Of a stretch of 64,000 nucleotides of DNA, positions 4,588 through 63,536 are shown in pieces. Below the pieces are notes generated by a model, which worked only from the letters and a program-made list of their open reading frames with translations, was not told where the DNA came from and searched no databases. Both the position numbers and the translations under genes were made by a program. The stretch lies in NCBI GenBank assembly GCA_021781215.1, contig JAJXXC010000002.1, forward strand, positions 147,371 through 211,370. The letters are read 5' to 3'. This stretch comes from a bacterium (GTDB taxonomy: Bacteria > Patescibacteriota > Saccharimonadia > Saccharimonadales > DATKHC01). How positions within the stretch are numbered: the stretch's first letter is position 1; every line of letters starts with the position of its first letter.

Positions 4588-4634
4588 TAAACGACCCGAA
4601 CTAGTAATAAAAAGTATGTTTTAACACCGTATAG

Positions 4635-11684: not shown

Positions 11685-12692
11685 TTATTTATGAAATTTA
11701 TTTCTAAAGGCTCTAAGCTTAGTGGCATTCGGTGGAAGATCGTAGCTAATGATAGATTTTATATAGTCCAAGCTAACTTTTCTATTTCTTTGAATCTTAC
11801 TTCGTTGAATTAGTTTCTTTGGTAAAAGAGCTACCGATACAATCAATCCTTTTATTGCGTATATGCCTTGGCCTCGTTGGATAGAACTCAATATAAAACC
11901 ACAATAAGCCAGAGCAAGCCGGGGCACCACAGTCGGCAGTAAACTAAAGGGAACATCCTTGACTACAATCCAGGGCAGATTCTTCATTGTCTGATAGGTC
12001 GTAAATCCCTTAATCTTGCTGCTGCTAGCTCCAATCCGGTGATAGGCCGTAGCTTCTGGAGCATATTTAACCTTCCAGCCGGCTAGCTGTGCTCTAAAAC
12101 TGATATCAATATCTTCGTAATAGGCAAAAAAGTCATTATCGAATAAACCAATCTCATTCAGCATCTCTATTCTATATATGCTAGCTCCACCACTAGCACC
12201 AAATACTTCAGTTGAATCATCATATTTAGTGCTTACTGCTTCATCTCTGCCTCTTGGAAATGGTAAACCCCAACTAGTGTATAGATCTCCAGTGCTGTCC
12301 AATTTTTTTCTATCTATGGTCATAAACTTACATGTTGCAATGCCAACCCCAGGATTTTTGTCTAAAGAGTCTACTAGATGATCCAACCAATGCACGTCAG
12401 CAACCGCATCATCATTTAGTAATGCTATATAATCTAATTCAAGTTTAATGGCTCGCTTGATTCCCTGATTAACTCCACCCGCAAACCCCAAATTCTTCTG
12501 ATTTAAAATTAAATCAACGGTTGGATAGTTTTTCTGAATAATTTCAAGAGATCCGTCAGTAGACCCGTTATCTATCAGAATAATCTGAGTTTTGAGAGTT
12601 TGAGCCAATAGGGAATCCAAACAATCACTTATTGAGTCTTTTCCGTTCCAATTAAGAACTACTACGGCAGTTTTGGGCATCGACTTAATCAT
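11685..12692 (-). CDS. Glycosyltransferase, GT2 family (rhamnosyltransferase-like)
   Basis: 335 aa. VVVLNWNGKDSISDCLDSLLAQT...IILIDNGSTDGS and ..LLNDDAV (DxD-type) motifs. Confidence 0.85.
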   Translation of the reverse strand: MIKSMPKTAVVVLNWNGKDSISDCLDSLLAQTLKTQIILIDNGSTDGSLEIIQKNYPTVDLILNQKNLGFAGGVNQGIKRAIKLELDYIALLNDDAVADVHWLDHLVDSLDKNPGVGIATCKFMTIDRKKLDSTGDLYTSWGLPFPRGRDEAVSTKYDDSTEVFGASGGASIYRIEMLNEIGLFDNDFFAYYEDIDISFRAQLAGWKVKYAPEATAYHRIGASSSKIKGFTTYQTMKNLPWIVVKDVPFSLLPTVVPRLALAYCGFILSSIQRGQGIYAIKGLIVSVALLPKKLIQRSKIQRNRKVSLDYIKSIISYDLPPNATKLRAFRNKFHK

Positions 12693-12720
12693 CCTTTTTA
12701 TCTATAATACCCTATATTAT

Positions 12721-13524
12721 ATGTTTAAACGTATCTTATCTAAGCAGAACCGGGTTTTGCTGTCAGAACTAGTTCGCACTGATTTTAAACTTCGCTATCA
12801 AGATTCAGTTCTTGGTTACGCATGGTCACTACTTCGTCCACTACTCATATTTATAATTTTATACATTGTCTTTGTTAAGTTCTTAAAAGTTGGCGCCGGC
12901 ACACCACATTATGCCCAATATCTATTGTTTGGAATTGTGATTTGGAACTTCTTCCTTGAAATGACTTTGCAAAGCCTAGGGTCAATCGTTGGTAGGGGCG
13001 ATCTCATTCGTAAAATCCGAATTCCGAGGTGGATTATTGTTTTAAGCAGTAGCTTCTCGGCAGTAATAAATTTTCTTTTGAACCTGGTAATAATTGCTAT
13101 ATTTATGGCTATTGGCCATATTGTGCCCAGTCACCTGGTTATACTACTGCCCTTAATATTTCTAGAGGTCTATTTATTTGCTCTTGGCATTTCTTTTTTT
13201 CTATCCGCCGCATTTGTCAAATACCGTGATATTAGCTATATCTGGGAGGTTATTATTCAGGCCGGGTTTTATATAACCCCAATATTGTACCCGCTATCCC
13301 GCATTACAAATGTTACCTTTCAGAAGCTGCTAATACTTAATCCAATGGCTCAAGCGCTTCAAGATGCTCGCTATGTATTAATTACCAAAAAGACACTAAT
13401 ATCTAATCATATTTTTAACGGTGGATGGCATCAATTTATACCATACTCTATTGTTGCCCTGGTATTAATTATCGGAATATCTTATTTCAGGAAACAATCT
13501 AAATATTTCGGAGAAAACATATAG
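12721..13524 (+). CDS. wzm: Polysaccharide ABC exporter permease (ABC-2 / Wzm / TagG type)
   Basis: The track start at 12673 overlaps the divergent GT2 gene; ATG at 12721 (MFKRILSKQ..) is more likely. DFKLRYQDSVLGYAWSLLRPLL is the Wzm/TagG signature. 6 predicted TM. Confidence 0.85.
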   Translation: MFKRILSKQNRVLLSELVRTDFKLRYQDSVLGYAWSLLRPLLIFIILYIVFVKFLKVGAGTPHYAQYLLFGIVIWNFFLEMTLQSLGSIVGRGDLIRKIRIPRWIIVLSSSFSAVINFLLNLVIIAIFMAIGHIVPSHLVILLPLIFLEVYLFALGISFFLSAAFVKYRDISYIWEVIIQAGFYITPILYPLSRITNVTFQKLLILNPMAQALQDARYVLITKKTLISNHIFNGGWHQFIPYSIVALVLIIGISYFRKQSKYFGENI

Positions 13525-13526
13525 CC

Positions 13527-14795
13527 ATGGAAGATGACATTGCAATTAGCGTCAAGAATGTAAGTAAGACCTTTAAGTTGCCGCATGAGAAAAACACATC
13601 TATTAAGAGCGCGTTTGTTAATTTCTATAAGCGTGATAAAGGCTACGAGGAGCAAGAAGCGCTTAAAGACATATCATTTGACATTAAGAAGGGTGAATTT
13701 TTTGGTGTTGTTGGTAGAAACGGAAGTGGAAAGAGCACACTACTAAAAATATTAGCCGGAATATATAGTCCAAATACCGGCAGCGTTCAAGTCAATGGAA
13801 AGCTAATCCCATTTATTGAACTCGGCGTAGGATTTAGTCCAGAGTTGTCGGGCCGTGACAATGTATTTCTCAATGGATCACTATTGGGTTTCAGTCGCAA
13901 AGAAATGAAAGAAATGTACGATGATATCGTTAAATTTGCCGAGATCGAAAGGTTTATGGATCAAAAACTAAAAAATTATTCGTCTGGCATGCAGGTCCGT
14001 CTGGCATTTTCTATAGCCATTCGTGCAAAAAGTGAAATTTTACTTATTGATGAAGTTTTAGCTGTTGGTGATGCCGCTTTTCAGACTAAATGTTTCGACT
14101 ATTTCTACGAACTAAAGAAAACTGATACAACAGTAATATTCGTATCGCATGACAGGGGCTCTTTGGAAAGGTTTTGTGAGAGAGGGATTTTGATAGAAGA
14201 AGGTAAGATGATTGAATCTGGTACCATACAAGAAGTCCTTAGAAGCTATAGCGATATAGTATTTAAAGAGCTAGACCAGGCTTCTGAGGCGCAAACTGAA
14301 GCCGAAGGTGAAGCTAGGCCAATAAATAAACAGGGAAAAGTAGAATACGCGCACATAGATAAGGTTAGTACGTATGATGAAAAAGGTAACCTAAAAAAGA
14401 ATTTTCAATTTGGTGAAAAGATTTCACTAGAATTCACCGTGAATATAAAAAGGAAGATTGAGAACCCAATTATTGGAGTTACGGTGTGGTGTAAGAATGT
14501 CGATAAGGCGGTGTATGCAAATAATACCCTAATTGACGGCATTAAAGATACCGGTGTTTTTTTGGCAGGAGAAAAAATTATTCTAAAATTATCTCTACCA
14601 AAGTTATTAAATGATGGAGAATATTATATTGAACCGGCAATTGCTAACGAATCGGCATCAACTTTTTATGATCAAAAAATTAAAGCTGCAACATTCTTTA
14701 TTTCTGGAAGCAGCAACCCACATTCAATTATCTCCGGTACTGATAAATTAAAGCTTGAGGTATTGAAAAAAGGCGATGCGACTAAACAAAGCTAA
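13527..14795 (+). CDS. wzt: Polysaccharide ABC exporter ATPase with C-terminal extension (Wzt type)
   Basis: 422 aa. Walker A GRNGSGKST, signature YSSGMQVRLAF, Walker B LLIDEVLAVGD. About 170 extra C-terminal residues, as in Wzt proteins that carry a glycan-binding domain. Confidence 0.9.
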   Translation: MEDDIAISVKNVSKTFKLPHEKNTSIKSAFVNFYKRDKGYEEQEALKDISFDIKKGEFFGVVGRNGSGKSTLLKILAGIYSPNTGSVQVNGKLIPFIELGVGFSPELSGRDNVFLNGSLLGFSRKEMKEMYDDIVKFAEIERFMDQKLKNYSSGMQVRLAFSIAIRAKSEILLIDEVLAVGDAAFQTKCFDYFYELKKTDTTVIFVSHDRGSLERFCERGILIEEGKMIESGTIQEVLRSYSDIVFKELDQASEAQTEAEGEARPINKQGKVEYAHIDKVSTYDEKGNLKKNFQFGEKISLEFTVNIKRKIENPIIGVTVWCKNVDKAVYANNTLIDGIKDTGVFLAGEKIILKLSLPKLLNDGEYYIEPAIANESASTFYDQKIKAATFFISGSSNPHSIISGTDKLKLEVLKKGDATKQS

Positions 14796-15723
14796 ACTGA
14801 GGGCTATTTCTAACAAGGGTCGCAGTATTAAAAATACCCTAATTCGGTCTAACCCAACTGAAGTAGCTAAACGCAGAATAGTTAAATTTAAATATCGAGA
14901 AGCCAGCAGGGCTATTAGAATAAAACGTTCCGAATCTACCAAGATCGCTGTGGTTATTCATCTTTATTACCCAGATAGCTGGAGTTTGTTTGCTAAATCA
15001 ATAGCAAGAATAGATGATAAATTTGATCTATTTATTACACTGCCAAGCAAGAATGCCCATTTTGCAAAAAATATAATCAAAGACTTTGAAAATGCTCAAG
15101 TAATTATAGTTCCAAATCATGGTAGGGATGTCTTGCCGTTTTTAATAGTACTGAAGGTAATCAGAAAATTAGGGTATGTATATGTACTAAAACTTCACTC
15201 TAAAAAATCAACCCACAGGACAGATGGTAGTCGGTGGCTGGAAACTATGGTTAATGATTTATTGCCGACTAACCCCGAAATTATGAAGCAGATGCTTAGA
15301 TCTTTGGAATATAAAGATACCGGAATTATCGGACCGAATAATCAATATCTTAACTTAAGTGTTAATTTTGAAGCAAACGGTAGGCATATGACGAAGATAT
15401 TAACTAAAATCTACTCTAGGGAAGTCGCCAATCAAGTATTGCAAACCAATAGATTAGATTATGGTTTCTTTGCTGGAACTATGTTCTGGGCAAGGCTAGA
15501 CGCTCTTAAGCCGATATTAGATCAATCATTTGAAGCCACGGACTTTGAGTCTGAAAGTGGTCAAATTGATGGCACTATGTCTCATGCGCTTGAGCGAGTA
15601 TTGTCGTTAGTGTCTGAAATTGAAAACCGAAAAATGTACGAAGTAAGCCCTATGGGGGTAAAATTACTTAGCTACAAAACAGACAACATCCCTGATTGGT
15701 CTGATGTATACATTGGACCGTAA
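14776..15723 (+). CDS. Rhamnan synthesis protein F (RgpF)-like glycosyltransferase
   Basis: 315 aa. AVVIHLYYPDSW...FDLFITLP...VPNHGRDVLPFL...LKLHSKKS follows the RgpF family pattern. Start overlaps the wzt end by 20 nt. Confidence 0.7.
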   Translation: MRLNKAKLRAISNKGRSIKNTLIRSNPTEVAKRRIVKFKYREASRAIRIKRSESTKIAVVIHLYYPDSWSLFAKSIARIDDKFDLFITLPSKNAHFAKNIIKDFENAQVIIVPNHGRDVLPFLIVLKVIRKLGYVYVLKLHSKKSTHRTDGSRWLETMVNDLLPTNPEIMKQMLRSLEYKDTGIIGPNNQYLNLSVNFEANGRHMTKILTKIYSREVANQVLQTNRLDYGFFAGTMFWARLDALKPILDQSFEATDFESESGQIDGTMSHALERVLSLVSEIENRKMYEVSPMGVKLLSYKTDNIPDWSDVYIGP

Positions 15724-16289: not shown

Positions 16290-17279
16290 TTAATTTCGAT
16301 TTTTATGTTCAAGAGACATTTTGTTGCGCACATTTGAATTACTAATATTTTTTAATGCGAAGTAGCGTCCGGCTTTTTCTGCCATGTTATAGAAAGGTGC
16401 TTCGATAAACCATACAATTTTTGATTTCGTTGTGTATTCTCGGTCACGATCAATAAATTTCCAGTCGGCAATTGTTGGTTTAATCCATCCCAATAAAAGC
16501 GATCGTCTGCTTGGAAGTAGATTTATTCCAACACTCTCTTGCAGGCCTATATACTCATCAAATTTACGATGAAAATATTGTTTGGCCGTATATCCATTTG
16601 AATGCCAAACCGAACCCTGCGGTGTGTATGCCTTAAAATAACCATGTTTAAGCATGTCTTCGGCAAGAGCTTGATCTTCAGCATAGTTAACATCACGGAA
16701 GGGTACTGGCCCAACTAAAAGGCTTCTCCTGGCTGCAGAGTTTACATCTGAGAAGAACCCATTAATACTAGAAATACTTTGTTTGTCGACCAGCGATTTA
16801 TCTCGATGTATTGATATTATGTCTGCGGCACCAAGACCTCCAAATACGCCAGCAACTTCTCGTTTAATAGTTGGTGCGGCATTTGGCCTAGGGATTTGTC
16901 TGCCAAATACACAGCCAACTCGCTCGTTTAGATAAAATGGCTCAATCATATTAATCAACCAACGATCAGAATAAGGTGTTGCGTCTTGTGATAGGAATAA
17001 AATGAATTCGCCCTTAGCCATTTTTGCAGCTCGTTGACGAGTACCGCCGTGACTAAATTCAGCATTTGGTATTTGCAACATTGTGAGTCTGGGTTTATAA
17101 CTAGCAAGGATCTCAAGGGTTTTATCAGTTGATCCCGAATCAATAACTAAAAGCTCAAGTTCATACCCAGTTGGTAATTTTTGGTACAAAATAGTTTCAA
17201 TAACCTCAGTTAGATACTGCTCGCCGTTAAATGTAGGTATAAATACACTAATATACTTATTGCTAGAGTTCTTGGACAT
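16290..17279 (-). CDS. Glycosyltransferase, GT2 family
   Basis: 329 aa. ISVFIPTFNGEQYLTEVIETILYQ...LLVIDSGSTDKT and ..FLSQDA motifs. Confidence 0.8.
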   Translation of the reverse strand: MSKNSSNKYISVFIPTFNGEQYLTEVIETILYQKLPTGYELELLVIDSGSTDKTLEILASYKPRLTMLQIPNAEFSHGGTRQRAAKMAKGEFILFLSQDATPYSDRWLINMIEPFYLNERVGCVFGRQIPRPNAAPTIKREVAGVFGGLGAADIISIHRDKSLVDKQSISSINGFFSDVNSAARRSLLVGPVPFRDVNYAEDQALAEDMLKHGYFKAYTPQGSVWHSNGYTAKQYFHRKFDEYIGLQESVGINLLPSRRSLLLGWIKPTIADWKFIDRDREYTTKSKIVWFIEAPFYNMAEKAGRYFALKNISNSNVRNKMSLEHKNRN

Positions 17280-18201
17280 AGTCCCAGGTCCTTTTTATTC
17301 CATCCTCAAGGTTAACTCGAGGAATTATTCCAAACTCATCATTGAAACGAGAAATGTCTAATACTATCTTATCAACAAAAGTTTTAGGCGTGGGAGTGTG
17401 TTTTTTATCTACACTATATCCTGTGCAACTTTCGATATGTTTAATTAATTCATTAACACTTTTACCACTACCACTACCAATGTTATATTCAGGAAATTTA
17501 TTAGCCTGTTGATAGCTATTAACCACCATAGTTATAAGATCATCAATAAAAAGATAGTCGCGTACCATTGATCCGTCACCATAGATGGTTATCGGTTCTT
17601 TTGTTAGGTAGTGATACAAAAATACTGGTATTACGCCTTGTTTGCCATGAATGTTTTGACCTGGACCGTATGGGTTGGCTGCCCGATAGACAATATAATC
17701 TAATCCGGATCGATGTTTGAAATAGCGAAGATAATGCTCGATAGTTAATTTTCCAATTCCATAAGGAGACCTTGGCGCTGGCGTGCTCGATTCATCAATT
17801 AGATCGCTATCGACATCTCCATAAACAGTGCCACCAGATGATAAAAAAATTACCTTTTTTACCTTTTGCTCAACACATACTTCAAATAGCTCAACACTAC
17901 CCCTAATATTGGTGTCAATATCTATAAACGGATCGTTATTGGCGGTTGCTGGGTTAGTGGAGGATATTAGGTGAAAAACGTAATCGACGCCACTAAGTAC
18001 ATTAACCAAGTCATCTCGGTTAAAGAAATCACCCGGAGCTATAGTTACATTACTAAGTTTTTCAAAAGGGTGGTCACTACCTATTTGATAGTTTGAGAAT
18101 TTATCAAAGACAATAATAGTATTATCGGTAACCTCACTTAGTCGATTAACTAAGTGGCGGCCTATAAAACCATCTGCTCCGAAAACAACAATCTTACTCA
18201 T
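17263..18201 (-). CDS. NAD-dependent sugar epimerase/dehydratase/reductase (extended SDR)
   Basis: 312 aa. VVFGADGFIGRHLV Rossmann motif and YGIGKLTIE (YxxxK). Overlaps both neighbouring genes. Confidence 0.85.
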   Translation of the reverse strand: MSKIVVFGADGFIGRHLVNRLSEVTDNTIIVFDKFSNYQIGSDHPFEKLSNVTIAPGDFFNRDDLVNVLSGVDYVFHLISSTNPATANNDPFIDIDTNIRGSVELFEVCVEQKVKKVIFLSSGGTVYGDVDSDLIDESSTPAPRSPYGIGKLTIEHYLRYFKHRSGLDYIVYRAANPYGPGQNIHGKQGVIPVFLYHYLTKEPITIYGDGSMVRDYLFIDDLITMVVNSYQQANKFPEYNIGSGSGKSVNELIKHIESCTGYSVDKKHTPTPKTFVDKIVLDISRFNDEFGIIPRVNLEDGIKRTWDYVQEL

Positions 18202-19457
18202 TTTTTGCGAGTCTCCCTCTCCACAATACTAACAAATTTTTCTCCCGATTCATCCCAGCTACTTTGTTTAATGCTTTTTGATGCTAGGTGTGCATATGCT
18301 GCAAGATCTGGTTTGGTGACTATCTCTGACAATTTGTTAGCTAGTGAGATTGGATCGGCTGGAGAATAGGCAATATATTCACTGTCTGACACTAGCCGAT
18401 TATTATCACCGTCGTTAACTACTGGGATGGTGCCACCGGCTAATAATTCCAAAGGTAATAGAGACATGTTGGTGAATGATAGAACCAGACCGGCGGCGCA
18501 TCTATTATATAGTTCATTCAACTCACTTATTTCTAGTGTCTTAAGATTATTGTATTGAAAGGGTATGTCGTAATTAGAAACATCATAGCCGACCATGTTG
18601 ATTGTGTAATCTGGATGTTTGCGGTGGAATAGGTCAAGCGCCATAACACCTATTTCAAAACCTCGTCTCTCAGTATATGGACGGGCGTAGAATAAGATTT
18701 CTTTACGTTTTCCACTATTAGTAAATGAATAAATATTTTCATCAGCTCCAAAACTGTAATAATCAGTAGACATACCATAATCAGCTCTGAGTTTTTTAGC
18801 CAACCAACCACCGGCAGTCACTCCGTAAAAACCGAATTTATAGCTATTTTCTGCTAAAGTATAAAGACCTCCTACTGGATAGAAATATGGCTCAAAATCT
18901 TGGACGAAATAAAATCTTTTAGCGTCTAGTTTTGAGTTATAGGCCGCATAGGCTGTTTCCCAACTGGTGGCAAAAATGCCGTCAGCTTCCGCCATGTGTT
19001 CATCTTCATCCAACCATTCCATCTCTGCATTAACTGAGTGATATGAATCACCCATAATTGCTTTTATGTCGCTAATCTTACTCTTACCTTTCTGGCTATA
19101 TATATAAATCCGGCACGTGTGCCCGTTGGTTTCTAGATAGTGAATAAATCTAAAAATATTTAAGTGTCCGCCACTACCTTTTCCTGGAGGCGGCATAATC
19201 CAATTGAATGTCAAAGATTGTTTGTTTGAGCCTTTCCATGGCCTAATTGGTTGATGGAAGTCTGCCCTTAGAGCATCTTCATATCTAACATTAGTATGGA
19301 TAGATCCACCAACATGACTTGATTTAGAAGTGTTTTTACTTACTAGTCGTAGATATTTGGCAATAAATTCAAAGATTAGAGCTGTGAAGTTTAATATTCC
19401 TTCTTCACGAAATACTTTCAAACTAACCCTAAACTTCCGCATCATTTTTTTTAGCAT
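18198..19457 (-). CDS. Glycosyltransferase (WsaF-like rhamnosyltransferase fold, tentative)
   Basis: 419 aa. PPGKGSGGHLNIFRFIHYLETNGHTCRIYIY resembles the N-terminal domain of WsaF-type enzymes. C-terminal half resembles a GT-B fold. Confidence 0.55.
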   Translation of the reverse strand: MLKKMMRKFRVSLKVFREEGILNFTALIFEFIAKYLRLVSKNTSKSSHVGGSIHTNVRYEDALRADFHQPIRPWKGSNKQSLTFNWIMPPPGKGSGGHLNIFRFIHYLETNGHTCRIYIYSQKGKSKISDIKAIMGDSYHSVNAEMEWLDEDEHMAEADGIFATSWETAYAAYNSKLDAKRFYFVQDFEPYFYPVGGLYTLAENSYKFGFYGVTAGGWLAKKLRADYGMSTDYYSFGADENIYSFTNSGKRKEILFYARPYTERRGFEIGVMALDLFHRKHPDYTINMVGYDVSNYDIPFQYNNLKTLEISELNELYNRCAAGLVLSFTNMSLLPLELLAGGTIPVVNDGDNNRLVSDSEYIAYSPADPISLANKLSEIVTKPDLAAYAHLASKSIKQSSWDESGEKFVSIVERETRKK

Positions 19458-19506: not shown

Positions 19507-21915
19507 CTAAATTGAGGGTCCGGTAGGGAATGTGGCGAGGGTTGATGGGCTCAGGTTGGTGATATAGGGGCTAGTGGTGCCACTAGCTATAACCAATGCA
19601 TTCCAGCTTGAGAACGGATCCTTAATACCATTATTTAGAGAGTAAATTGTGCCTGTTGATGGATCGGCTACATAATTGCTGGCTGGACTACACTGCGCCA
19701 AATTAAGATTACGATATAATCTACCGCTGTATACTTGAGCATTTATGATTCCAGTTTGAGTTTGTCCATAATTTGACAATTGATTGGTAGTTAATGAATA
19801 ACAGCCATTCTGATCAGCAATGTACTCAGTATTGTTCGAATAATCATAAATATATTTTTGAACTACTACATTATTATATGGATAATTTTGATCTAAATTA
19901 GCTTGTGGTATTGTCTCTATATCGGACCAGTTGAAGTGATAGGCAATAAAATCAGAACCAGATGCAAACAGAATTCGGCTGTTGCCTGAAACCATGTAAA
20001 CAGCACCATTATTATCTGATTTAACCAACTCGCCATCAGCCAACTTAATACCACCAGTTGGTATAGAGGACAGAACATAATTGCCTAAGCCAGTAATTTG
20101 ACTTATGCCAAGTTGCGTGAGAGTGGATAAGGAAGGTATAGTCTCTCTAGTTCCGTTTTCCAAATACCAGACAACGGGAGAATTGGGTGAATTTATAGCT
20201 TGACTCAAGGGGCTACTTGCAGACGGTACATTGTTAATCAGTCCGCTTAAATCTGAGTTTAGATTAATAGTCCCGCTAAAGGTTCCATAATTAGAGGGTA
20301 TAGAATATTTATTTGAGCCATTTAATAAATACGTTGTACCTTGATTATTTGTGACCATACAACTAGTTAAATTGACAGTACTATTAATCGGCGCCACGTC
20401 AGTATCATATACCAATGAGTACATAGGTGTTTTTAGAGATGAACCAAATCCCCAGCAATTATATTCATCCATTGAGGATAATCCGTAGTAGGATCCGTTT
20501 AACAATAAGAAAACGGTACCTGCGCTGTTATTAATTAAGACTTCACGATTTACTATGGGTAGGCCCGAAGGAATCATAACTGATATGGAATCACTTACTG
20601 GCGTATAGGCACCGCTGGGATTTAGTGCAGCATAAGTTGAATAATCGAATATAATTCGTTTATAACCAGCATTAATTTGAAAAACCGAATTGTGAGGATT
20701 TTGGATATAGTCGGTAAGAGCCCCGGATCCTTTTATTAATGCAATGAAGCTAAGTGGTAGGTAGGCGATATTAGAGGTATTGAAGTTAAACCCATAAAAT
20801 TGGTTCATGTCTGTTATGGCATATTTTTGGCCAACAGTTACTAGAAATATCGCTGGATTATTAACAGCCTGCACTAGATAGCTTAAGGCTGGGCTGATGC
20901 CATTAGTGTTAACGCTCGGGGTCGGTATATTATCTACTTCTGTTTGAGTAAAAGTTTGAATTGCTCCAGGATTTATACCATAGTCTTGGAGCATCGCCAT
21001 GGTTGGAACCGCGACTTTGTAGCCATTCACGAATAGATAGACCCCAGCACCCGTAGATGACTTAAATGCATATGGCGTAGCTGAGCCACCAAACCATAGG
21101 GAGAAATAGAATACAAAATTATAACTACCAGAGTAGTATTCTTGAGCACTACCTGGAAAGACGTGGGGGGTATAGCAGTACAAAGATGATGTTGCGGCAT
21201 TTGGCAGAGTGAAATTAGCATAACCAGTTCCATAGTCATCATAAAATGTTATATTATTGCCAGTTTTTAGAGCGGCGCTATAATATCTTGTCGTACCATT
21301 GCATGGATATGATGTTGCCGGGAAACCACCATAACTGTTTCCGCTAATTGCCTCGAAGTTGTAACGAAATTGCCATGCTGACCATGCTAATTGAGTAAAA
21401 AATCCTGGATATGATGCACAGCCACTACTGTCTGGACAACCATAACCCATAGCATAGTTTAATTGAGAGGCTGTCGGATTAGGGGTTGTGACTAATGATT
21501 GTTCCTTTTGCATAGTTGCTAGCAAAACCTGAGGATTGATACCATAAGCCTGAGAAGTATCATAGATTATTTGTGCTGCAGATACAGTGGCGCCACAAGA
21601 ATAATAGGAAGAATAAACAGACATCATGGCACCACTAGTGGCGGTGCCACAAACTTCAGTATCAGAGAAGGTCGCTAGACCGCTACCCTCATTTTGTAAA
21701 AATGTCTGTATAGAAGCAGCTGTCATAGTAAAAGATGCCCTGAAAGTCGAGTCATCCATTAGATAACTCGTATAATTATAAGTAATGGCACTAGCCTTAG
21801 GGGTTTGAAATAGTAATTGAGATGAGATTAATAACCCAAACGTTATAACGATGAAAAATCCTGATCGTCGTATGATGTGATTAAGGCTAGAAGTTGACAG
21901 GTATCTGGACTTCAT
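19507..21915 (-). CDS. Large secreted/cell-surface protein with about nine degenerate 40-50-aa repeats
   Basis: 802 aa. N-terminal signal anchor (..FFIVITFGLLISSQLLFQTPKASA). Cys-containing N-terminal domain with AAQIIYDTSQAYGINPQVLLATMQKEQSLV. C-terminal 500 aa made of repeats of the type xVYLhxNGxKxxIPS....G......I..V......IP. Rich in N/S/T/Y/G. Confidence 0.7.
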   Translation of the reverse strand: MKSRYLSTSSLNHIIRRSGFFIVITFGLLISSQLLFQTPKASAITYNYTSYLMDDSTFRASFTMTAASIQTFLQNEGSGLATFSDTEVCGTATSGAMMSVYSSYYSCGATVSAAQIIYDTSQAYGINPQVLLATMQKEQSLVTTPNPTASQLNYAMGYGCPDSSGCASYPGFFTQLAWSAWQFRYNFEAISGNSYGGFPATSYPCNGTTRYYSAALKTGNNITFYDDYGTGYANFTLPNAATSSLYCYTPHVFPGSAQEYYSGSYNFVFYFSLWFGGSATPYAFKSSTGAGVYLFVNGYKVAVPTMAMLQDYGINPGAIQTFTQTEVDNIPTPSVNTNGISPALSYLVQAVNNPAIFLVTVGQKYAITDMNQFYGFNFNTSNIAYLPLSFIALIKGSGALTDYIQNPHNSVFQINAGYKRIIFDYSTYAALNPSGAYTPVSDSISVMIPSGLPIVNREVLINNSAGTVFLLLNGSYYGLSSMDEYNCWGFGSSLKTPMYSLVYDTDVAPINSTVNLTSCMVTNNQGTTYLLNGSNKYSIPSNYGTFSGTINLNSDLSGLINNVPSASSPLSQAINSPNSPVVWYLENGTRETIPSLSTLTQLGISQITGLGNYVLSSIPTGGIKLADGELVKSDNNGAVYMVSGNSRILFASGSDFIAYHFNWSDIETIPQANLDQNYPYNNVVVQKYIYDYSNNTEYIADQNGCYSLTTNQLSNYGQTQTGIINAQVYSGRLYRNLNLAQCSPASNYVADPSTGTIYSLNNGIKDPFSSWNALVIASGTTSPYITNLSPSTLATFPTGPSI

Positions 21916-22435
21916 TTATTTCTTTTCCGTTAGGATCAGTACTAAATACATCTAATCGACCAGTACTACTTGTTGATTTAAAATTGATAGTAGCTGAGAA
22001 TTTTCCACCAACTACGCTTATGGTGCCTTGTGATATGACGCCTGACTGATTATCGATTAAGGTATAGCCTATACTACCTACGCTAGCTAAGCCATTTAAT
22101 AGAAATCCTGATGCAATAGTTGAATTAGCTATTGGTTGCTGTAGAGTAATAGCTCCTGACTGAGACTGGACCCATTGACTTGGTAATGTAGCAATTGTTG
22201 ACGGGCTTTTCCCAGAATTATCTACGGTAGTGCCCTTAGAGCTAGAAGTGGATCCGGCTGGTTGGCTAACACTACTGTTAGCTTTGGTTGGCAATTGTTT
22301 AATTGTAGGTTTCGGTGGGGGTTGCTTGGTAATCTGGTTATTGGGTCGAATATGGAAATAGTAGACTACGCCTAGAGCAATAAGTACCAGGACGATAGTC
22401 GATGATATCTTATGGTGTTTGAGTATTTTTATCAT
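21887..22435 (-). CDS. Membrane-anchored protein with Gmad2-type Ig-like domain
   Basis: 182 aa. N-terminal TM (IVLVLIALGVVYYF), P/S/T-rich linker, and a C-terminal ..ITLQQPIANSTIASGFLLNGLAS....GKFSATINF....GRLDVFSTDP..G domain pattern. The last 29 nt overlap the start of the 802-aa gene. Confidence 0.6.
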   Translation of the reverse strand: MIKILKHHKISSTIVLVLIALGVVYYFHIRPNNQITKQPPPKPTIKQLPTKANSSVSQPAGSTSSSKGTTVDNSGKSPSTIATLPSQWVQSQSGAITLQQPIANSTIASGFLLNGLASVGSIGYTLIDNQSGVISQGTISVVGGKFSATINFKSTSSTGRLDVFSTDPNGKEINEVQIPVNF

Positions 22436-22570: not shown

Positions 22571-23302
22571 TTATTTAAGTTTTTTCAATCTTATTTTTGG
22601 AACAAGGATAAGGTTAGTTAATATAGTAGATTTTGGTAGTTTTGATTTACCGTGTTGTCTATCTCGGAAAATTATTGGTATTTGTTGTATGCCATGCGCG
22701 TTTAAGACGGACAGATATTTTAAATTAATTAAGAAACCGTACCCCGTGCTATTAATTTTGGAGTAGTTAATTTTATCAAGAAGGTCTTTAGAATACATAT
22801 TGTAGCCTCCGGTATAATCGGATATTTTATTGCTAAGAATGAGACGAGCATAGAAGTTACCTACTTTGCTAAGCATCCTTCGTGATAATGGCCAGTCTGG
22901 TGTATCTCCTCCTGGTATATAACGCGATCCTACGACCAGATCATTATCCCCCGATAATTTTATAAATGCAGGTAAATAGACTGGATCGTGTGATAGATCA
23001 GCATCCATTTGTATAATAAAATCCGAGCCTTGATCTAATAAATTACTAAAGCCCTCTATGTATGCACGACCCAACCCGTTCTTAATTTTTCTTGCCAATA
23101 AATCAATTTTGAAATTTTTGGTATTGTATTTATTTGCGAATTCTTTGACGATTTCGGCAGTACCATCTGGAGAATTATCATCAATTACTAGTATGGTAGT
23201 AGATATTAAAGGTAAGTTGACCAAGCTTAAGTGTATATTCTCAAGCAATTGGCCAATATTAGTTGCTTCGTTATATGTAGGTATTGCTATCCCTAAATTC
23301 AT
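22571..23302 (-). CDS. Polyprenol-phosphate mannosyltransferase-like GT2 (Ppm1/Dpm1 type)
   Basis: 243 aa. IAIPTYNEATNI...ILVIDDNSPDGT...GLGRAYIEGF...IIQMDADLSHDP...VVGSRY is a near-textbook Dpm1/Ppm1 motif set. Confidence 0.85.
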   Translation of the reverse strand: MNLGIAIPTYNEATNIGQLLENIHLSLVNLPLISTTILVIDDNSPDGTAEIVKEFANKYNTKNFKIDLLARKIKNGLGRAYIEGFSNLLDQGSDFIIQMDADLSHDPVYLPAFIKLSGDNDLVVGSRYIPGGDTPDWPLSRRMLSKVGNFYARLILSNKISDYTGGYNMYSKDLLDKINYSKINSTGYGFLINLKYLSVLNAHGIQQIPIIFRDRQHGKSKLPKSTILTNLILVPKIRLKKLK

Positions 23303-31819: not shown

Positions 31820-32680
31820 CTAAGCAAGTTCTAGCAGATATTTACCGTAGCCACTTTTGACAAGTGGTTTCGCGATTACTTCAAGCTGTTTTTTATTAAT
31901 AAACTTTTGTCCATATGCTGCTTCTTCAATACAGCCGATTTTAATTCCTGTACGTTTTTCGATAACGCGAATATATTCGCTAGCATCATTCATTGACTCA
32001 AATGTACCGGTGTCTAGCCATGCCGTGCTTCGATCAAGTAATTGAACTTTAAGTTTGCCACGTTTTAAGTAGGCATTATGAATCTCAGTTATCTCAATTT
32101 CACCTCGAGCGCTGGGTTTTACATTCTTGGCTATTTCAATAACGTCATTGTCAAAAAAATAGAGACCGGGAATAGCATAATTAGATTTTGGTTTTTCGGG
32201 TTTTTCTTCAATCGAGATCACGTTCATTTTATTATCGAACTCTACGATCCCGTAGCGCTCTGGATCAACTACTTGTTGCCCAAAAATTACCCCACCATCT
32301 AAATTGTTCATAGCATCTTTAACTTTATTATCTAGATCACTCCCATAGAAAATATTGTCTCCTAAAACCATGGCAACGCTACTCTTGCCGATGAAATCAG
32401 CACCCACAATGTAGGCATCGGCCAGTCCGCGTGGTTCTTCTTGGACTTTATAGCTAAATTCGCAGCCTATTTGCGATCCATCACCTAATAGATTTTGAAA
32501 GCGGGGAATGTCGTGGGGGGTTGAGATGATTAATATTTCCCTAATTCCAGCATTGATTAAAGTGCTGAGAGGATAGTAAATCATTGGCTTGTCATAAATT
32601 GGGATTAGCTGCTTACTAATGCCCATGGTAATAGGATATAGGCGAGTGCCCGAACCACCGGCTAGAATTATTCCTCTCAT
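31820..32680 (-). CDS. rmlA: Glucose-1-phosphate thymidylyltransferase
   Basis: 286 aa. MRGIILAGGSGTRLYPIT..SKQLIPIYDKPMIYYPL is canonical RmlA. Confidence 0.95.
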   Translation of the reverse strand: MRGIILAGGSGTRLYPITMGISKQLIPIYDKPMIYYPLSTLINAGIREILIISTPHDIPRFQNLLGDGSQIGCEFSYKVQEEPRGLADAYIVGADFIGKSSVAMVLGDNIFYGSDLDNKVKDAMNNLDGGVIFGQQVVDPERYGIVEFDNKMNVISIEEKPEKPKSNYAIPGLYFFDNDVIEIAKNVKPSARGEIEITEIHNAYLKRGKLKVQLLDRSTAWLDTGTFESMNDASEYIRVIEKRTGIKIGCIEEAAYGQKFINKKQLEVIAKPLVKSGYGKYLLELA

Positions 32681-33531
32681 TGGATCTTTTCCTTCTCTAT
32701 ATATTCTTTAAGATCATTATACCAACTATGGGACTCAAAACCTGTTTGATGAAGTTTATCTAAGTCCATAACACTATTAAGCGGTCTTGGAGCAATGCCA
32801 GTTTTACCTTCATAGTATTGCTCAGTAGTAACGTCAGTCACGCTGTTACCTAAGGCTGTTATTTTAAATATTTCTCTAGCAATATTAGCCCATGAAGCTG
32901 GCTCACCATCATTAGTGACGTTATAAATTCCAAAAGCTGAGTTGTTAGTAAGTAAATAATCTATTGCTCTAACTAGCTCGGGGGTAAAAGTTAGTCTACC
33001 TATTTGGTCATCTACAACACTTGGGTTAATGCCTTTTTGAGCTAAGGTTAGCATTGTTCGGACAAAATTATTACCATCACCGATTACCCAGGATGTTCTA
33101 AGAATATAATGCTTAGATGCAAGAGACACTGATATATCTCCGGCTGCTTTACTTTCTCCGTATACTGATAGCGGACTATAGGGCTCATCTTCCGTGTGAT
33201 TATCATTGCTGCCATCAAAAACATAGTCGGTTGAAATATGGACTAGAGTGATGTCATGTTTATTTGCAATCTTTGTTAAATATGCAGGGGCAACGGCATT
33301 TACTTTCCAGGCAGCAATTCGTCCTTCGTTAGTTTCAGCACCGTCAACATTGGTGTAGGCTGCGGCGTTAATAATGGTTTTTATATCAGTCCAATCGAAA
33401 TTATCTAGAGCCACCCAATTTGTAATGTCTAATTTATCGGCATCTATGGCTTTTGCGCCAGGGTATTGTTGTTGCAAGGCTCTACCTAGCTGACCGTTAG
33501 ACCCGATTATAAGTATTTGTCTATCTTTCAT
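32677..33531 (-). CDS. rmlD: dTDP-4-dehydrorhamnose reductase
   Basis: 284 aa. ILIIGSNGQLG, STDYVFDG and YGESKAAGD motifs. Lies within the rml operon. Confidence 0.9.
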   Translation of the reverse strand: MKDRQILIIGSNGQLGRALQQQYPGAKAIDADKLDITNWVALDNFDWTDIKTIINAAAYTNVDGAETNEGRIAAWKVNAVAPAYLTKIANKHDITLVHISTDYVFDGSNDNHTEDEPYSPLSVYGESKAAGDISVSLASKHYILRTSWVIGDGNNFVRTMLTLAQKGINPSVVDDQIGRLTFTPELVRAIDYLLTNNSAFGIYNVTNDGEPASWANIAREIFKITALGNSVTDVTTEQYYEGKTGIAPRPLNSVMDLDKLHQTGFESHSWYNDLKEYIEKEKIQ

Positions 33532-34099
33532 TTAACCTCCATTGGCACTACAGCTTTTAGCATCAGGTGATTACGATCTCGTTCTGAAATAATTGCTTTA
33601 TTTAAGTCTATTGGCCACTGTACGGCAATATCTGGATCAGCTAGGTTCACAAAACTATATTTATCGTAATTATCAGCACTCCAATGACTATTTACGCTAT
33701 ATAAATAGTAAGTGTCTGACTCTAATGTCTGGAAAGAATTAGCTACGCCTTCGGGCAAAAACACGGTTTTATTAGCATCAATCTCAACTGTCACGACTTT
33801 TCCAAATGTATCTCCTTTACGTAAATCTAAGTAAGCCGCAAATACTTTTCCACGAACTACGGATATATACTTATCCCAAGGTTCAGCATGAAAGCCTCTG
33901 GTTACGCCTGTCTGCTTGTTATATGAGAGACTATTTTGAACAACTTCAAAACTACTCGGTAGTCCTTCTTTGATTAATTTAGCCTTCTGATACTTCTCTT
34001 GAAAATATCCACGCTCATCACCAACGAAAGTAACGTCAAAAATTAAAAGACCGGGTATATTAGTTTTGTGACCAGTAAATTCAGTTGTCGGTACGGCCA

Positions 34100-34100
<1 letters not shown>
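33528..34100 (-). CDS. rmlC: dTDP-4-dehydrorhamnose 3,5-epimerase
   Basis: 190 aa cupin. ..DERGYFQEKY.., RGFHAEPWDKY. Lies within the rml operon. Confidence 0.9.
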
Positions 34101-35119
<1,019 letters not shown>

Positions 35120-35175
35120 TTAAGACTTAGATAATCCTTAAATTACCACAGTGATCCTATGATATTATTGACCTC

Positions 35176-39929: not shown

Positions 39930-39931
39930 AT

Positions 39932-62772: not shown

Positions 62773-63321
62773 CTAGTATTTGATTGGAATAATGACGGAA
62801 TCGCTATTAGACGCTAATCCTGATGGATTATCTTTTTGTAAGACTATTGTTCCACTGCCGCTTTGTTCCCCAGAATATATCAACTTTACGGAGAATGGAA
62901 CTAGCTGATCTGTTTGCCAGCTACCCAGTACCTGGGCAGGGGTTTGAACGATTACATTCCCTGAGCTATCTTTTAATTGCACAGGGAAGCTGGCTTCAAA
63001 CGACCAATTGCCTGGAACTTCACCGACTACTGCGATTGGGCTAGCTACTATTGAATTCTTGAGCGGAGTATAGATTATGATTTTTACACCTTTTTGTGAG
63101 GTATATGTATAGCCAGGTTGTTGGATCTGATTTTTAAGCAAGTTCAATTGAGTATTTAGAGAAGTGACCTGTTTATCTAAAGTGTTAACTTTATTATGTT
63201 GCCAATTATATGTGCCGTAAATTGCCAAACCAGCAATTAAGATTAGCAATATTGCCAGTAAGACCTTGGCTAGTATATTGCCTCGAGATAAGTTTCGGTT
63301 ATTCTTCCAGGGTTGCCTCAT
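62773..63321 (-). CDS. Membrane-anchored Gmad2-type Ig-like domain protein (paralog-like of 21887..22435)
   Basis: Start taken at ATG 63321 (MRQPWKNNRNLSRGNILAKVLLAILLILIAGLAIY..). C-terminal ..PLKNSIVASPIAVVGEVPGNWSFEASFPVQLKD..G........GSGTIVLQKDNPSG domain. Confidence 0.6.
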   Translation of the reverse strand: MRQPWKNNRNLSRGNILAKVLLAILLILIAGLAIYGTYNWQHNKVNTLDKQVTSLNTQLNLLKNQIQQPGYTYTSQKGVKIIIYTPLKNSIVASPIAVVGEVPGNWSFEASFPVQLKDSSGNVIVQTPAQVLGSWQTDQLVPFSVKLIYSGEQSGSGTIVLQKDNPSGLASNSDSVIIPIKY

Positions 63322-63536
63322 AGTTCTATTATACTCTGATAGTACAAGTACTGATGTCATTGTGGCTAGATGCATGTTATTTAGTGGCGCTAAATAGAAA
63401 ACCCATACGGAGCGGCTATAGAGGTTATGGTACATATGACAGAACTTGTGCATTCCAGTTGGTGAGATGGAAATAACTACTTAAAGAGGATAAAGTGTTA
63501 GCTTGGTTTGATGGACGAAAAAGGAATTAAACTAAC

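Follow-up and report, generated by a model that had tools for sequence, protein, structure and literature searches.

We tentatively propose that two overlapping genes at positions 19507..22435 belong together as a two-gene cassette conserved in the surface-polysaccharide loci of the ultra-small Saccharibacteria (TM7/CPR), encoding a wall-active glycosidase with a glycan-binding tail and a membrane-anchored partner; taken as a whole, this reading falls just short of probable. Positions refer to the window, the whole 64,000-nucleotide stretch of DNA that was analyzed.

Gene Arrangement and Locus Context

The larger gene (19507..21915, minus strand) encodes a secreted modular protein of 802 aa, composed of a predicted signal peptide, a head, and nine repeats. 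The smaller gene (21887..22435, minus strand) encodes a 182-aa partner in which a linker rich in S/T/P/Q joins an N-terminal membrane anchor to a Gmad2-like beta domain at the C-terminus. As described previously, the two open reading frames overlap by 29 nt (21887..21915, minus strand), from the start codon of the 802-aa gene to the partner stop, read in the sequence as ATG AAG TCC ... TTC TAG. Among the possible starts, only M1 leaves the 802-aa protein with its conserved hydrophobic N-terminal segment; the following methionine, M53, is where a public gene call for the identical protein P0001 begins (750 aa). The arrangement suggests that translation of the partner and the 802-aa protein is coupled.

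This arrangement is conserved. In each of the 13 loci, a gene for a 173–209-aa protein with anchor, linker, and beta domain comes directly before the head gene, at a spacing of −29 to +55 nt (in the 12 loci other than the present one, −4 to +55 nt, with both genes on one strand). All 13 cassette loci examined are glycan-synthesis loci. The pair had been placed within a glycan locus, and the survey of related genomes bears this out, with the 802-aa gene and the adjoining small gene as integral, conserved parts of such loci.

Immediately downstream of the 802-aa gene is a WsaF-like glycosyltransferase (18198..19457, minus strand; PF22772 WsaF_C, E 1e-17, and PF21374 WsaF_N). Immediately upstream of the partner is a small GT2 of the polyprenyl-phosphate sugar synthase type (22571..23302, minus strand; PF00535, E 1e-27), which NCBIfam matches weakly to dolichyl/undecaprenyl-phosphate sugar transferases. 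Pfam further identifies Wzm (12673–13524), Wzt with Wzt_C (13527–14795), and an RgpF-like protein (14776–15723), together spanning 12673..15723 on the plus strand, and RmlA, RmlD, RmlC, and RmlB for dTDP-L-rhamnose synthesis (31820..35098, minus strand). The window also contains a gene combining a methyltransferase with a double GT2 (WsaE-like), a WbaP/WsaP-type initiating phosphoglycosyl transferase (39932–41374, minus strand; PF02397, E 3e-60; TIGR03025, 361 bits), and a Wzy_C 'O-antigen ligase' family protein (41399–42718, plus strand; PF04932, E 2e-14). Wzm/Wzt are visible in 11 of the 13 cassette loci, and in locus L024 a WbaP/WsaP-type and Wzy_C block lies at most 7 kb from the cassette. 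Neither the window nor the related loci showed any type VII secretion genes.

Secretion and Composition of the 802-aa Protein

The N-terminus had been described as a signal anchor. A cleavable signal peptide (residues 1–43; 21787..21915, minus strand) is more likely, considering the single hydrophobic segment at residues 18–38 and the predicted cleavage after A-S-A (41–43); orthologs share an A/V-x-A motif at this place, just ahead of the mature domain. The richness in N/S/T/Y and the motifs quoted previously are both present: serine accounts for 12.5%, threonine for 9.1%, asparagine for 8.7%, and tyrosine for 8.0% of the residues (38% in total), K+R+D+E for just 8.2%, and the pI is acidic (4.45). 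Six cysteines are located in the head and four in the tail.

The 601 homologs found all belong to Saccharibacteria/Patescibacteria and are all annotated as 'hypothetical'. The protein matches no family in Pfam or NCBIfam, including SLH and other S-layer anchoring domains such as CWB2, and neither the head nor the repeat domain was found in any phage lysin. The signal peptide, the conserved cysteine pairs, and the EccB-type repeat fold, otherwise known solely from the extracytoplasmic portion of EccB, support the earlier assignment as a cell-surface protein, extracytoplasmic and associated with the envelope.

The Head Domain

The head (residues 44–290, 247 aa; 21046..21786, minus strand) is unannotated, and its sequence has no match in Pfam, NCBIfam, or the PDB. 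Its family comprises at least 939 clusters, and heads in proteins with unrelated tails are 54–69% identical. Its invariant residues are E138, C160, C166, Q175, and Y246-x-Y-T-P250. Glu138 (codon 21502..21504, minus strand; motif MQKE138QSL), the candidate catalytic acid, is invariant in 39 sequences and in 14 diverse sequences.

The AF2 model of the head is confident (pLDDT 86.8, pTM 0.87) and points to a lysozyme-like fold. In Foldseek searches, about 25 of the top 30 PDB matches belong to the peptidoglycan glycosidases of GH73/GH23 (best E 0.13), and the top viral structures are GH73 glucosaminidases (probability 0.98–0.99, E 0.07). The neighbors in the two libraries include LytB, AtlE, SagB, Atl, Acp, MltC/E/F, g-type lysozymes, phage GH73 enzymes, and tail lysins. 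Thus, structural comparison of the N-terminal domain gave a confident model and near-uniform GH73/GH23 neighbors, but none of these matches is statistically significant (best E 0.07–0.13, TM ~0.3). Sequence methods did not link the head to GH73 or GH23 either.

In the model, a 'helix-G-I-N-P-helix-E' element ends in E138, which sits at the C-terminal end of its second helix (89–100 in domain numbering). An element of this kind, 'helix-G-x-x-P-helix-E' with the helix ending in Glu, also occurs in GH73/GH23 wall enzymes that bear wall-polymer-binding repeats (pneumococcal LytB, S. aureus AtlE/Atl/SagB, E. coli MltC/MltE, FlgJ), as does the secreted head-plus-repeats layout. The sole hhalign segment against E. 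coli FlgJ sets E138 on the Glu of 'AALESGWG', at a nonsignificant E of 0.57. However, these enzymes reach no significant sequence or structure score with the head, which is larger (~247 aa), probably forms three disulfides, and carries its own invariant Y-x-Y-T-P motif. We propose that the head is a putative lysozyme-like peptidoglycan glycosidase.

The Nine-Repeat Tail

Repeat statistics, AF2, and Foldseek define the tail (residues 291–802; 19510..21045, minus strand) as nine tandem EccB-type repeats. About nine degenerate modules of 40–50 aa had been reported from about residue 295; there are exactly nine, beginning at residue 291, but the unit is longer, at 47–64 aa (mean 57). The units start at residues 291, 355, 410, 467, 527, 581, 638, 696, and 756, corresponding on the minus strand to R1 20854–21045, R2 20689–20853, R3 20518–20688, R4 20338–20517, R5 20176–20337, R6 20005–20175, R7 19831–20004, R8 19651–19830, and R9 19510–19650. 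The periodicity is clear. When a profile is made for each unit from orthologs alone, it recovers other units in register at up to 12.5 bits, compared with maxima of 3.5–8.7 in shuffled sequences (n = 200), and a generic 55-column unit HMM gives exactly nine full-length matches (15–52 bits) in the 802-aa protein and none in any other open reading frame of the window. Two cysteine pairs of the tail, 487/519 in R4 and 705/742 in R8, are nearly invariant.

The AF2 model of the tail (pLDDT 94.7, pTM 0.78) is confident and contains nine hairpin-helix-strand-helix-strand units at the starts defined by sequence. The top 11 Foldseek matches in the PDB are all EccB1, EccB3, or EccB5 (E 2.5e-6 to 3e-4), and they are the only significant ones. 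The modeled repeat unit therefore has the EccB-type fold. A single-repeat sequence profile does not match EccB, so the link is at the level of the fold only. EccB is a core component of the actinobacterial type VII/ESX system (PDB IDs: 4KK7, 3X3M, 5CYU, 6SGY, and 7NP7), and its repeat fold of ~55 aa, a small beta sheet with two helices, is common to the tail (PMC4769845). Both proteins place extracytoplasmic repeats after an N-terminal hydrophobic segment. In EccB, however, four repeats are arranged with quasi two-fold symmetry about a central core of beta sheet, whereas the tail has nine in tandem without a core (global TM 0.11–0.14). The 802-aa protein also lacks a PF05108 match and carries an enzyme-like head.

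The EccB1 repeats have been likened to the wall-binding protein PlyCB, with the explicit statement that peptidoglycan or glycan binding by EccB repeats was never experimentally demonstrated (PMC4769845). In streptococci, PlyCB binds the polyrhamnose that forms the backbone of the wall polysaccharide (bioRxiv 10.1101/2021.03.19.436156). It is absent among the listed Foldseek matches of the tail (top 50). The streptococcal phage endolysin PlyC has two subunits, an octameric PlyCB ring and PlyCA with CHAP and GH-type catalytic domains, whereas the 802-aa protein is a single chain with nine tandem repeats. Moreover, PlyC is phage-encoded, while the 802-aa protein is chromosomal and was not found in phages.

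Elsewhere in the head family, lectins or modules already known to bind the wall take the place of the EccB repeats (B_lectin, ricin, PLL propeller, LGFP, FG-GAP, or N_BRCA1_IG tails). LGFP is a wall-binding domain in lysins of Corynebacteriales phages (PMC8223927). All 5 loci with an EccB tail have a WsaF-type glycosyltransferase next to the cassette, compared with 0 of 8 with other tails (hypergeometric 1/1287, for 13 phylogenetically non-independent loci uncorrected for kinship). The B_lectin tail accompanies ManC, PMM, and paired GT4s, and the LGFP tail adjoins Glf. The tail type thus appears to track the sugar chemistry of the locus. The head stays constant while this chemistry varies, and its substrate should therefore be invariant.

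The Membrane-Anchored Partner

The partner has one hydrophobic segment in a Kyte-Doolittle scan (residues 8–32; 22340..22414, minus strand), and this membrane anchor is kept in all partner orthologs. Its Gmad2-like (Ig-like) domain spans residues 96–182 (21890..22150, minus strand), with a Pfam match over residues 96–170. The likeness to Gmad2 proposed in the preliminary description stands at the level of the domain, although the score remains below the Pfam gathering cutoff (PF10648, E 8e-5, 23.3 vs 25.7 bits). Two partner orthologs (L004 and L007) match the same region of the model, likewise below threshold. The second Gmad2 paralog of the window was confirmed as an open reading frame at 62773..63453 (PF10648, E 6e-10), adjoining an NTP_transferase gene compatible with galU; hhalign aligns it with the partner over 93 columns (30% identity, E 0.0045). 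Thus, the C-terminal domain aligns over its full length with Gmad2, the GerM-associated Ig-like domain, in three orthologs, and with the bona fide Gmad2 paralog of the window, but every partner score is below the Pfam threshold, and the partner has no GerMN domain.

Twenty-two columns are invariant across seven partner orthologs. L001 and L004–L008 (36–62% identity), as well as 11 of the 13 reference-genome loci, have a clear partner homolog directly before the head gene. Partner similarity drops with head divergence, independent of tail type, and the partners of more divergent cassettes carry a different small Cys-containing beta domain that has no Pfam match.

Discussion

The preliminary description saw the large protein as a structural S-layer-like protein or adhesin, possibly the glycosylation target of the locus. 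In such a case, it would accept the locus glycan through the Wzy_C enzyme, the head would be a wall anchor with a secondary or no catalytic role, and the repeats would form an exposed glycosylated layer. The window does contain the whole gene set for S-layer O-glycosylation known from Geobacillus stearothermophilus NRS 2004/3a (WsaF-like, WsaE-like methyltransferase with glycosyltransferases, Wzm/Wzt with Wzt_C, RmlABCD, WbaP/WsaP-like, and Wzy_C WsaB-like), and in the SgsE/slg system the target gene sgsE, for a large secreted S/T-rich protein, is likewise near its cluster (PMC2943079). The low pI, the few charges, and the S/T/N/Y content are also compatible with a glycoprotein. However, the most conserved part of the protein is the head, with its invariant Glu and lysozyme-superfamily model neighbors. 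It is joined to interchangeable ricin, B_lectin, PLL, or LGFP tails, the layout of an autolysin or endolysin, which suits an enzyme with a targeting module and not a lattice protein. Ten cysteines would be unusual for an S-layer protein, and the protein has no likeness to S-layer proteins or their anchors (SLH, CWB2, and others). In contrast to the monocistronic S-layer target genes (PMC2943079), the 802-aa gene is operonic and overlaps its partner. The N-X-S/T sequons (14, against ~14 expected) show no enrichment, a count uninformative on O-linkage. The Wzy_C gene is 19 kb away in the window, and among the other loci only L024 has one within the examined flanks. We therefore consider a mainly structural role distinctly unlikely. 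A GH73 autolysin, Acm2 of L. plantarum, is known to be glycosylated, so the glycoprotein and enzyme readings could coexist.

If the protein is an enzyme, its target could lie elsewhere than in the producer's wall. Trimming, release, or length control of the locus polysaccharide or its lipid-linked precursor, with the tail holding the substrate, would resemble the roles of BcsZ, PslG, and PelA in exopolysaccharide operons. It would fit the strict confinement of the cassette to polysaccharide loci (13/13), the lectin-like tails apparently matched to locus chemistry, and the absence of an LCP-type ligase among the window open reading frames with Pfam matches. We nevertheless find it very doubtful, as the heads remain 54–69% identical across loci predicted for rhamnose/6-deoxyhexose, mannose, or galactofuranose polymers, where a polymer-specific enzyme should vary, and as the structural neighbors of the head are peptidoglycan enzymes. 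Action on the actinobacterial host is also unlikely, although less doubtful: the tail would recognize host wall polysaccharide, for example rhamnose-rich CWPS, and the head would open host peptidoglycan at contact. The CWPS of the TM7x host is rhamnose-rich, and host binding is almost lost when free rhamnose is present; the authors of that study suspected multiple glycan-binding interactions (PMC11623550). Essential envelope proteins of Southlakia with polysaccharide-binding or -degrading domains have been proposed to target host glycans (PMC10633639). EccB and LGFP repeats are both characteristic of Actinobacteria, the phylum to which the hosts belong, and the modeled head is similar to muralytic enzymes, phage tail lysins among them. 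Conversely, the cassette is always inside the epibiont's own glycan locus with the tail following the locus genes, which makes self-binding the simpler account; the membrane-anchored partner directly upstream suggests action at the producer's envelope, and no homolog was identified in a cultivated strain.

We tentatively favor a glycosidase that acts on the producer's own wall, guided there by its glycan-binding tail. To our knowledge, a peptidoglycan hydrolase gene is not usual in Gram-positive rhamnan loci, which counts against this reading. The partner would insert one N-terminal helix into the membrane and expose its Gmad2-like Ig-like domain outside the cell on a flexible linker of ~60 residues. 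The 802-aa protein would be translated from the partner's message and secreted, and its signal peptide cleaved. Glu138 may serve as the general acid when the head cleaves a glycosidic linkage in an invariant component of the wall, for which the peptidoglycan backbone is the likeliest candidate. The nine-repeat rod may bind the 6-deoxyhexose/rhamnose-type polysaccharide made by the locus, which would hold the enzyme in the wall, while the partner may dock or regulate the head. A possible analogue is the pairing of SagB with its membrane partner SpdC (PDB ID: 6U0O, among the Foldseek matches of the head). SpdC is a polytopic CAAX-type protein; the cassette partner is instead single-pass and Ig-like. 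The cassette may thereby serve local wall opening, remodeling, or turnover tied to polymer insertion, or cell separation, and this enzymatic role could still apply if the 802-aa protein is itself glycosylated.

Results

Gene Pair and Secretion Signal

Surface-glycan loci of Saccharibacteria contain a conserved two-gene cassette, defined here, in which the second protein has a tail that is swapped among lectin-like modules. In the window, both open reading frames lie on the minus strand as previously claimed. A 182-aa partner is encoded at 21887..22435 and an 802-aa protein at 19507..21915, with an overlap of 29 nt. The G+C content of the window is 33–40%. The 802-aa protein comprises a head (residues 44–290) and a repeat tail (residues 291–802). 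Its homologs were found in Candidatus Saccharibacteria/Saccharimonadales and related Patescibacteria only, and every one is annotated "hypothetical". No Pfam or NCBIfam family was assigned to it, and the match to PF18249 (Ca_bind_SSO6904, E 0.75) was regarded as noise.

The described richness in N, S, T, and Y is evident, as these residues make up 38% of the protein, whereas K, R, D, and E contribute just 8.2%; the mature protein has a pI of 4.45. Each of the two cassette proteins has one N-terminal hydrophobic segment. In the 802-aa protein, this segment had been taken for a signal anchor. However, because it is followed by A-S-A, with A/V-x-A conserved there in orthologs, the sequence is better read as a putative cleavable signal peptide. 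The public gene call for the same protein (P0001, 750 aa) begins at Met53 and thus lacks the signal peptide; its start was probably mis-called.

Cassette and Tails in Related Loci

Twelve further loci were selected so as to include full-length homologs with identities as low as 30% as well as eight other tail types. In each of the 13 loci, that of the window included, the head gene is directly preceded, on the same strand and within a glycan-synthesis locus, by a gene encoding 173–209 aa, the spacing being −4 to +55 nt in the 12 further loci. Wzm/Wzt are visible in 11 of the 13. The preliminary description had proposed looking for homologs next to glycan loci in related genomes; in 12/12 further loci examined, the homolog lies within such a locus. 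A related-locus search with a single head sequence returned 13 loci, all from MAGs and none from a cultivated strain.

The tails joined to the head include EccB-type repeats, N_BRCA1_IG/NPCBM_assoc, B_lectin, ricin-type lectin, PLL beta-propeller, FG-GAP, LGFP, and DUF5648 modules. Several of these modules are lectins, and LGFP is a recognized wall-binding domain in lysins of Corynebacteriales phages (PMC8223927). A WsaF-type transferase adjoins the cassette in five of five loci with an EccB-type tail versus none of the eight with other tails (hypergeometric 1/1287, for 13 loci that are phylogenetically non-independent). The locus of the mannose-binding B_lectin tail carries ManC, PMM, and two GT4s, and the LGFP tail adjoins Glf. 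Within this sample, these observations suggest that the tail binds the polymer of its own locus.

In the locus with a DUF5648 tail (L022, 2838–6346), the cassette neighbors, a Peptidase_M23 protein carrying FG-GAP repeats and a Big_7 protein carrying DUF5648, are other wall-active or surface proteins that use tail module types of the head family.

Glycan Locus of the Window

The cassette sits in a glycan locus of ~35 kb. A WsaF-like glycosyltransferase lies directly downstream of the pair, and a small GT2 of the polyprenyl-phosphate-sugar type directly upstream. The locus also encodes a GT4, three GtrA proteins, Gmd, several GT2s, Wzm, Wzt with a Wzt_C domain, an RgpF-like protein, and a reductase/epimerase, together with a methyltransferase followed by a double-GT2 protein, RmlABCD, ManC, a PMM-like protein, GlmS, a WbaP-type initiating transferase, and a Wzy_C protein. 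Among the window ORFs with Pfam matches, no LCP ligase was found. The nucleotide-sugar genes (10689–11669, 17263–18201, and 31820–36956) specify Gmd plus reductase for a GDP-6-deoxyhexose, RmlABCD for dTDP-L-rhamnose, and ManC/PMM for GDP-mannose. These three routes coexist, and the locus probably produces either a heteropolymer or multiple glycans.

Two polytopic membrane proteins (23378–24739 and 28086–29798), with 8 and 9 predicted helices and no Pfam or NCBIfam match, flank the cassette. In related loci, the equivalent place is taken by DUF7657/DUF7654, DUF2142, PMT_2, or GtrA-fused proteins. Considered together with the three GtrA proteins and the small GT2, the polytopic proteins resemble GT-C-type extracytoplasmic glycosyltransferases that add side chains. 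In the window, the block of GT4, WbaP-type transferase, Wzy_C, and GtrA genes (38805–43179) is separated from the cassette by 19 kb, but in a locus with an LGFP tail (L024, 1–3398) it directly adjoins the cassette. The Wzy_C enzyme may act as an O-oligosaccharyltransferase, as a ligase, or as a polymerase.

Near the start of the window lie dnaN (1039–2133), dnaA (2404–3789), YidC (4948–5895), and a KH/R3H Jag-like gene (5895–6356). This stretch (1039–6356) places the opening of the window beside the chromosomal replication origin region, so that the large glycan locus lies directly next to the origin. Just before the glycan locus, a 466-aa protein (6407–7807) carries a C-terminal PF00756 "putative esterase" domain, a family to which mycolyltransferases and esterase D belong. 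A Replic_Relax (replication-relaxation, PF13814) gene (9103–9975) lies between a GT4 and a GtrA gene where the locus begins to give way to its surroundings, at its edge, and may be a mobile-element remnant.

Partner Protein

The partner had been described as a Gmad2 protein. Positions 2–85 of 86 of the Gmad2 model (PF10648) are covered in three partner orthologs, but the scores are sub-threshold: 23.3 bits for the partner itself, under the gathering cutoff of 25.7, and 23.9 and 20.8 bits for two orthologs. A seven-member partner profile aligned by hhalign with the Gmad2 paralog of the window over 93 columns (E 0.0045, 30% identity), at low probability. The partner is probably Gmad2-like without formally belonging to the family.

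Partner homologs are clear in six related loci (L001 and L004–L008), at 36–62% identity, and 11 of 13 reference-genome loci have the partner upstream of the head. The upstream protein of the five most divergent cassettes, whose heads are at most 38% identical, has the same design of anchor, linker, and beta domain but belongs to a second sequence class without a Pfam match. Two schemes were rejected: the upstream partners are not all Gmad2-like, as 5 of 12 fall in the second class, and partner type is not set by tail type, as EccB-type tails occur with both classes and partner class tracks head divergence. Head and partner are therefore kept together while tails swap. Such co-divergence is also the null expectation for adjacent, vertically inherited genes and does not by itself prove an interaction.

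The second Gmad2 paralog noted earlier is confirmed as a transmembrane segment plus Gmad2 (62773–63453, E 6e-10). It adjoins a GalU-like nucleotidyltransferase and a CofD/YvcK-family gene (60350–62719), with no head-domain gene alongside; Gmad2 proteins thus occur outside the cassette too.

Repeat Tail and Its Resemblance to EccB

The tail had been described as about nine modules of 40–50 aa. The number holds, whereas the period was too short: there are nine units of 47–64 aa (mean 57), beginning at residues 291, 355, 410, 467, 527, 581, 638, 696, and 756. Comparison of the tail with itself by blastp gave the main diagonal alone and was uninformative, hence per-unit profiles were built from orthologous columns, with the query omitted, and controlled with 200 shuffles. 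These profiles find other units in register (U2 to U7, 12.5 bits; U6 to U1, 11.9; U7 to U1, 9.3), compared with best scores of 3.5–8.7 bits for the shuffles. A generic 55-column unit HMM gave exactly nine full-length matches (15–52 bits) in the 802-aa protein and no match elsewhere in the window. The periodicity on which the preliminary description depended is therefore present. In an AlphaFold2 model of residues 285–802 (70 sequences, pLDDT 94.7, pTM 0.78), the tail is predicted to form nine hairpin-helix-strand-helix-strand units, and the hairpin starts coincide with the unit boundaries.

Repeats 4 and 8, spaced by exactly four units, each contain a near-invariant Cys pair, 487/519 and 705/742, respectively (about 20359–20457 and 19690–19803); the first Cys is at a differing position within the two units. 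This spacing is a weak hint of a duplicated ancestral four-repeat block, EccB having four repeats.

The best 11 Foldseek matches of the tail model in the PDB are all EccB1, EccB3, or EccB5 (E 2.5e-6 to 3e-4, probability 0.92–1.0), and the modeled unit has the fold of the EccB repeat, a small beta sheet with two helices in ~55 aa. The global TM-score is low (0.11–0.14, rmsd 27–47 Å), indicating that the single unit matches and the overall arrangement does not. At the sequence level, the 802-aa protein gave no match to PF05108 (T7SS_ESX1_EccB) at E ≤ 1, 3 of 39 relatives matched weakly (best E 3e-4, far under the 27-bit cutoff), and the repeat profile did not retrieve EccB chains from PDB sequences. 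The EccB architecture of four repeats around a central beta-sheet core does not apply either, since nine tandem units fill residues 291–802 and leave the core no room. No T7SS core genes (EccC, EccD, MycP, WXG100) were found in the scanned window ORFs or in the gene lists of the 12 related loci. EccB family membership was therefore rejected on sequence model, core domain, four-repeat layout, and T7SS context. Because the unit sequence profile misses EccB, we propose a shared fold, as predicted by the model, and claim neither homology nor membership.

EccB1 has four repeats of ~55 aa, each a four-stranded sheet with two helices; they are weakly similar to the wall-binding PlyCB, and peptidoglycan binding by them is presented as a suggestion (PMC4769845). 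The ligand of PlyCB is the polyrhamnose backbone of streptococcal wall polysaccharides (bioRxiv 10.1101/2021.03.19.436156). Our literature search of a limited collection returned nothing on this head family, the cassette, or EccB-type repeats beyond T7SS. To our knowledge, the cassette tail is the first use of an EccB-type repeat outside type VII secretion.

Head Domain

The head is the best-conserved part of the 802-aa protein, with 54–69% identity among proteins whose C-terminal parts are wholly different, and a head-only profile search places at least 939 protein clusters in its family. As a single sequence or as a profile, it has no Pfam, NCBIfam, or PDB sequence match. Its invariant positions include E138 (in MQKEQSL), C160, C166, Q175, and Y246-x-Y-T-P250.

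The structure of the N-terminal domain was predicted and compared by Foldseek, as proposed in the preliminary description. The confident AlphaFold2 model (pLDDT 86.8, pTM 0.87) gave no significant match, the best E values being 0.13 (PDB) and 0.07 (viral library) with a TM-score of ~0.3, and the non-significant list is dominated by GH73/GH23. About 25 of the best 30 PDB matches are GH73/GH23 peptidoglycan glycosidases (probability up to 0.82), among them LytB, AtlE, SagB, Atl, Acp, MltC/E/F, SltB1, EtgA, and g-type lysozymes. Most of the best viral matches are also GH73/GH23 enzymes (probability up to 0.99), with GH73 glucosaminidases, SLT transglycosylases, and tail lysins heading the list. 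E138 is predicted to end the second helix (89–100, domain numbering) of a helix-GINP-helix element. In a non-significant hhalign comparison with the GH73 domain of E. coli FlgJ (E 0.57), the single aligned segment places E138 on the Glu of "AALESGWG", the GH73 general acid.

Models of GH73 (PF01832, Glucosaminidase) and GH23 (SLT, g-type lysozyme) did not match the 802-aa protein or 39 family members, and the head profile found no lysozyme among PDB sequences. The PDB sequence matches that did appear were considered noise, namely ABC substrate-binding proteins (E 0.17), a pannexin via "YCYTPH", and LRR proteins for the repeat profile. Head and tail gave no tblastn match in 50,697 phage records, so phage lysins lend no support. 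The enrichment is thus at fold level only: the head is likely, but unproven, to be a lysozyme-like glycosidase, with E138 as the probable active-site Glu of the family, and membership in GH73 or GH23 is unproven.

Discussion

The 802-aa protein has the layout of a modular wall hydrolase such as an autolysin or endolysin, being secreted and combining one conserved catalytic-type domain with exchangeable wall- or glycan-binding modules. We tentatively propose, with somewhat less than even confidence, that it is a wall-active glycosidase whose repeat tail keeps it in the wall of the producer and which works with a membrane-anchored Ig-like partner. The cassette would then be a dedicated accessory of the surface-polysaccharide pathway, and the head would cleave an invariant wall substrate, peptidoglycan. 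As the head is near-constant while the predicted sugar chemistry varies, its substrate should be invariant; peptidoglycan fits both this reasoning and the fold neighbors. Such an enzyme would resemble modular peptidoglycan hydrolases with a secondary-wall-polymer-binding module, such as LytB with its choline-binding repeats or PlyCA/PlyCB, and the partner may be similar to the SagB-SpdC arrangement. This mechanism is drawn from fold-level similarity and genomic context.

It is also conceivable, though unlikely, that the enzyme is aimed at an actinobacterial host, as a "can-opener" of the epibiotic lifestyle. The exchangeable tail would then read the wall polysaccharide of a given host, in the case of EccB-type repeats a rhamnose-rich polymer, the head would breach the peptidoglycan of the host where the epibiont attaches, and the partner would spare the producer's wall. 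A bolder possibility still would make the head a non-LCP transglycosylase joining the exported polymer to peptidoglycan. For TM7x, the host wall polysaccharide is rhamnose-rich and binding is rhamnose-inhibitable (PMC11623550), and envelope proteins targeting host glycans have been proposed for Southlakia (PMC10633639). However, the constant embedding of the cassette in the epibiont's own glycan locus favors self-binding. The same location would suit a glycosidase that processes the polymer of the locus, which we consider very improbable given a head that stays constant across different sugar chemistries.

The preliminary description had inferred a cell-surface or S-layer-like structural protein or adhesin, possibly the glycosylation target of the locus, and the window locus does match, gene by gene, the Geobacillus slg S-layer glycosylation cluster, the Wzy_C enzyme included. 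In Geobacillus, sgsE lies near the slg cluster (PMC2943079); the window contains the corresponding context of a WsaF-like protein, methyltransferase plus double GT2, Wzm/Wzt, RmlABCD, Bac_transf, and Wzy_C. Nevertheless, a purely structural role is opposed by the invariant Glu, the swapping of lectin-type tails, the ten Cys residues, and the operonic partner. Pfam and NCBIfam revealed no S-layer anchoring or lattice domains (SLH, CWB2, etc.) in the 802-aa protein, and N-glycosylation sequons are not enriched, a result without bearing on O-glycosylation. We regard the surface glycoprotein as decidedly unlikely; the putative enzyme may itself be glycosylated.

Saccharibacteria and other Patescibacteria represent a large share of bacterial diversity, and their envelope proteins are mostly unannotated. 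The novelty of the cassette lies in combining an unannotated head family with a repeat taken from an unexpected source. If the tail binds the neighboring polymer, a simple rule would predict wall-protein anchoring in Saccharibacteria/Patescibacteria, and EccB repeats, long suspected of binding glycans or the wall, would for the first time gain indirect support for such a role. If the tail instead reads the host wall, tail type would be a candidate determinant of host range in Saccharibacteria. Both readings are directly testable with recombinant domains and are relevant to the envelope biology of Patescibacteria.
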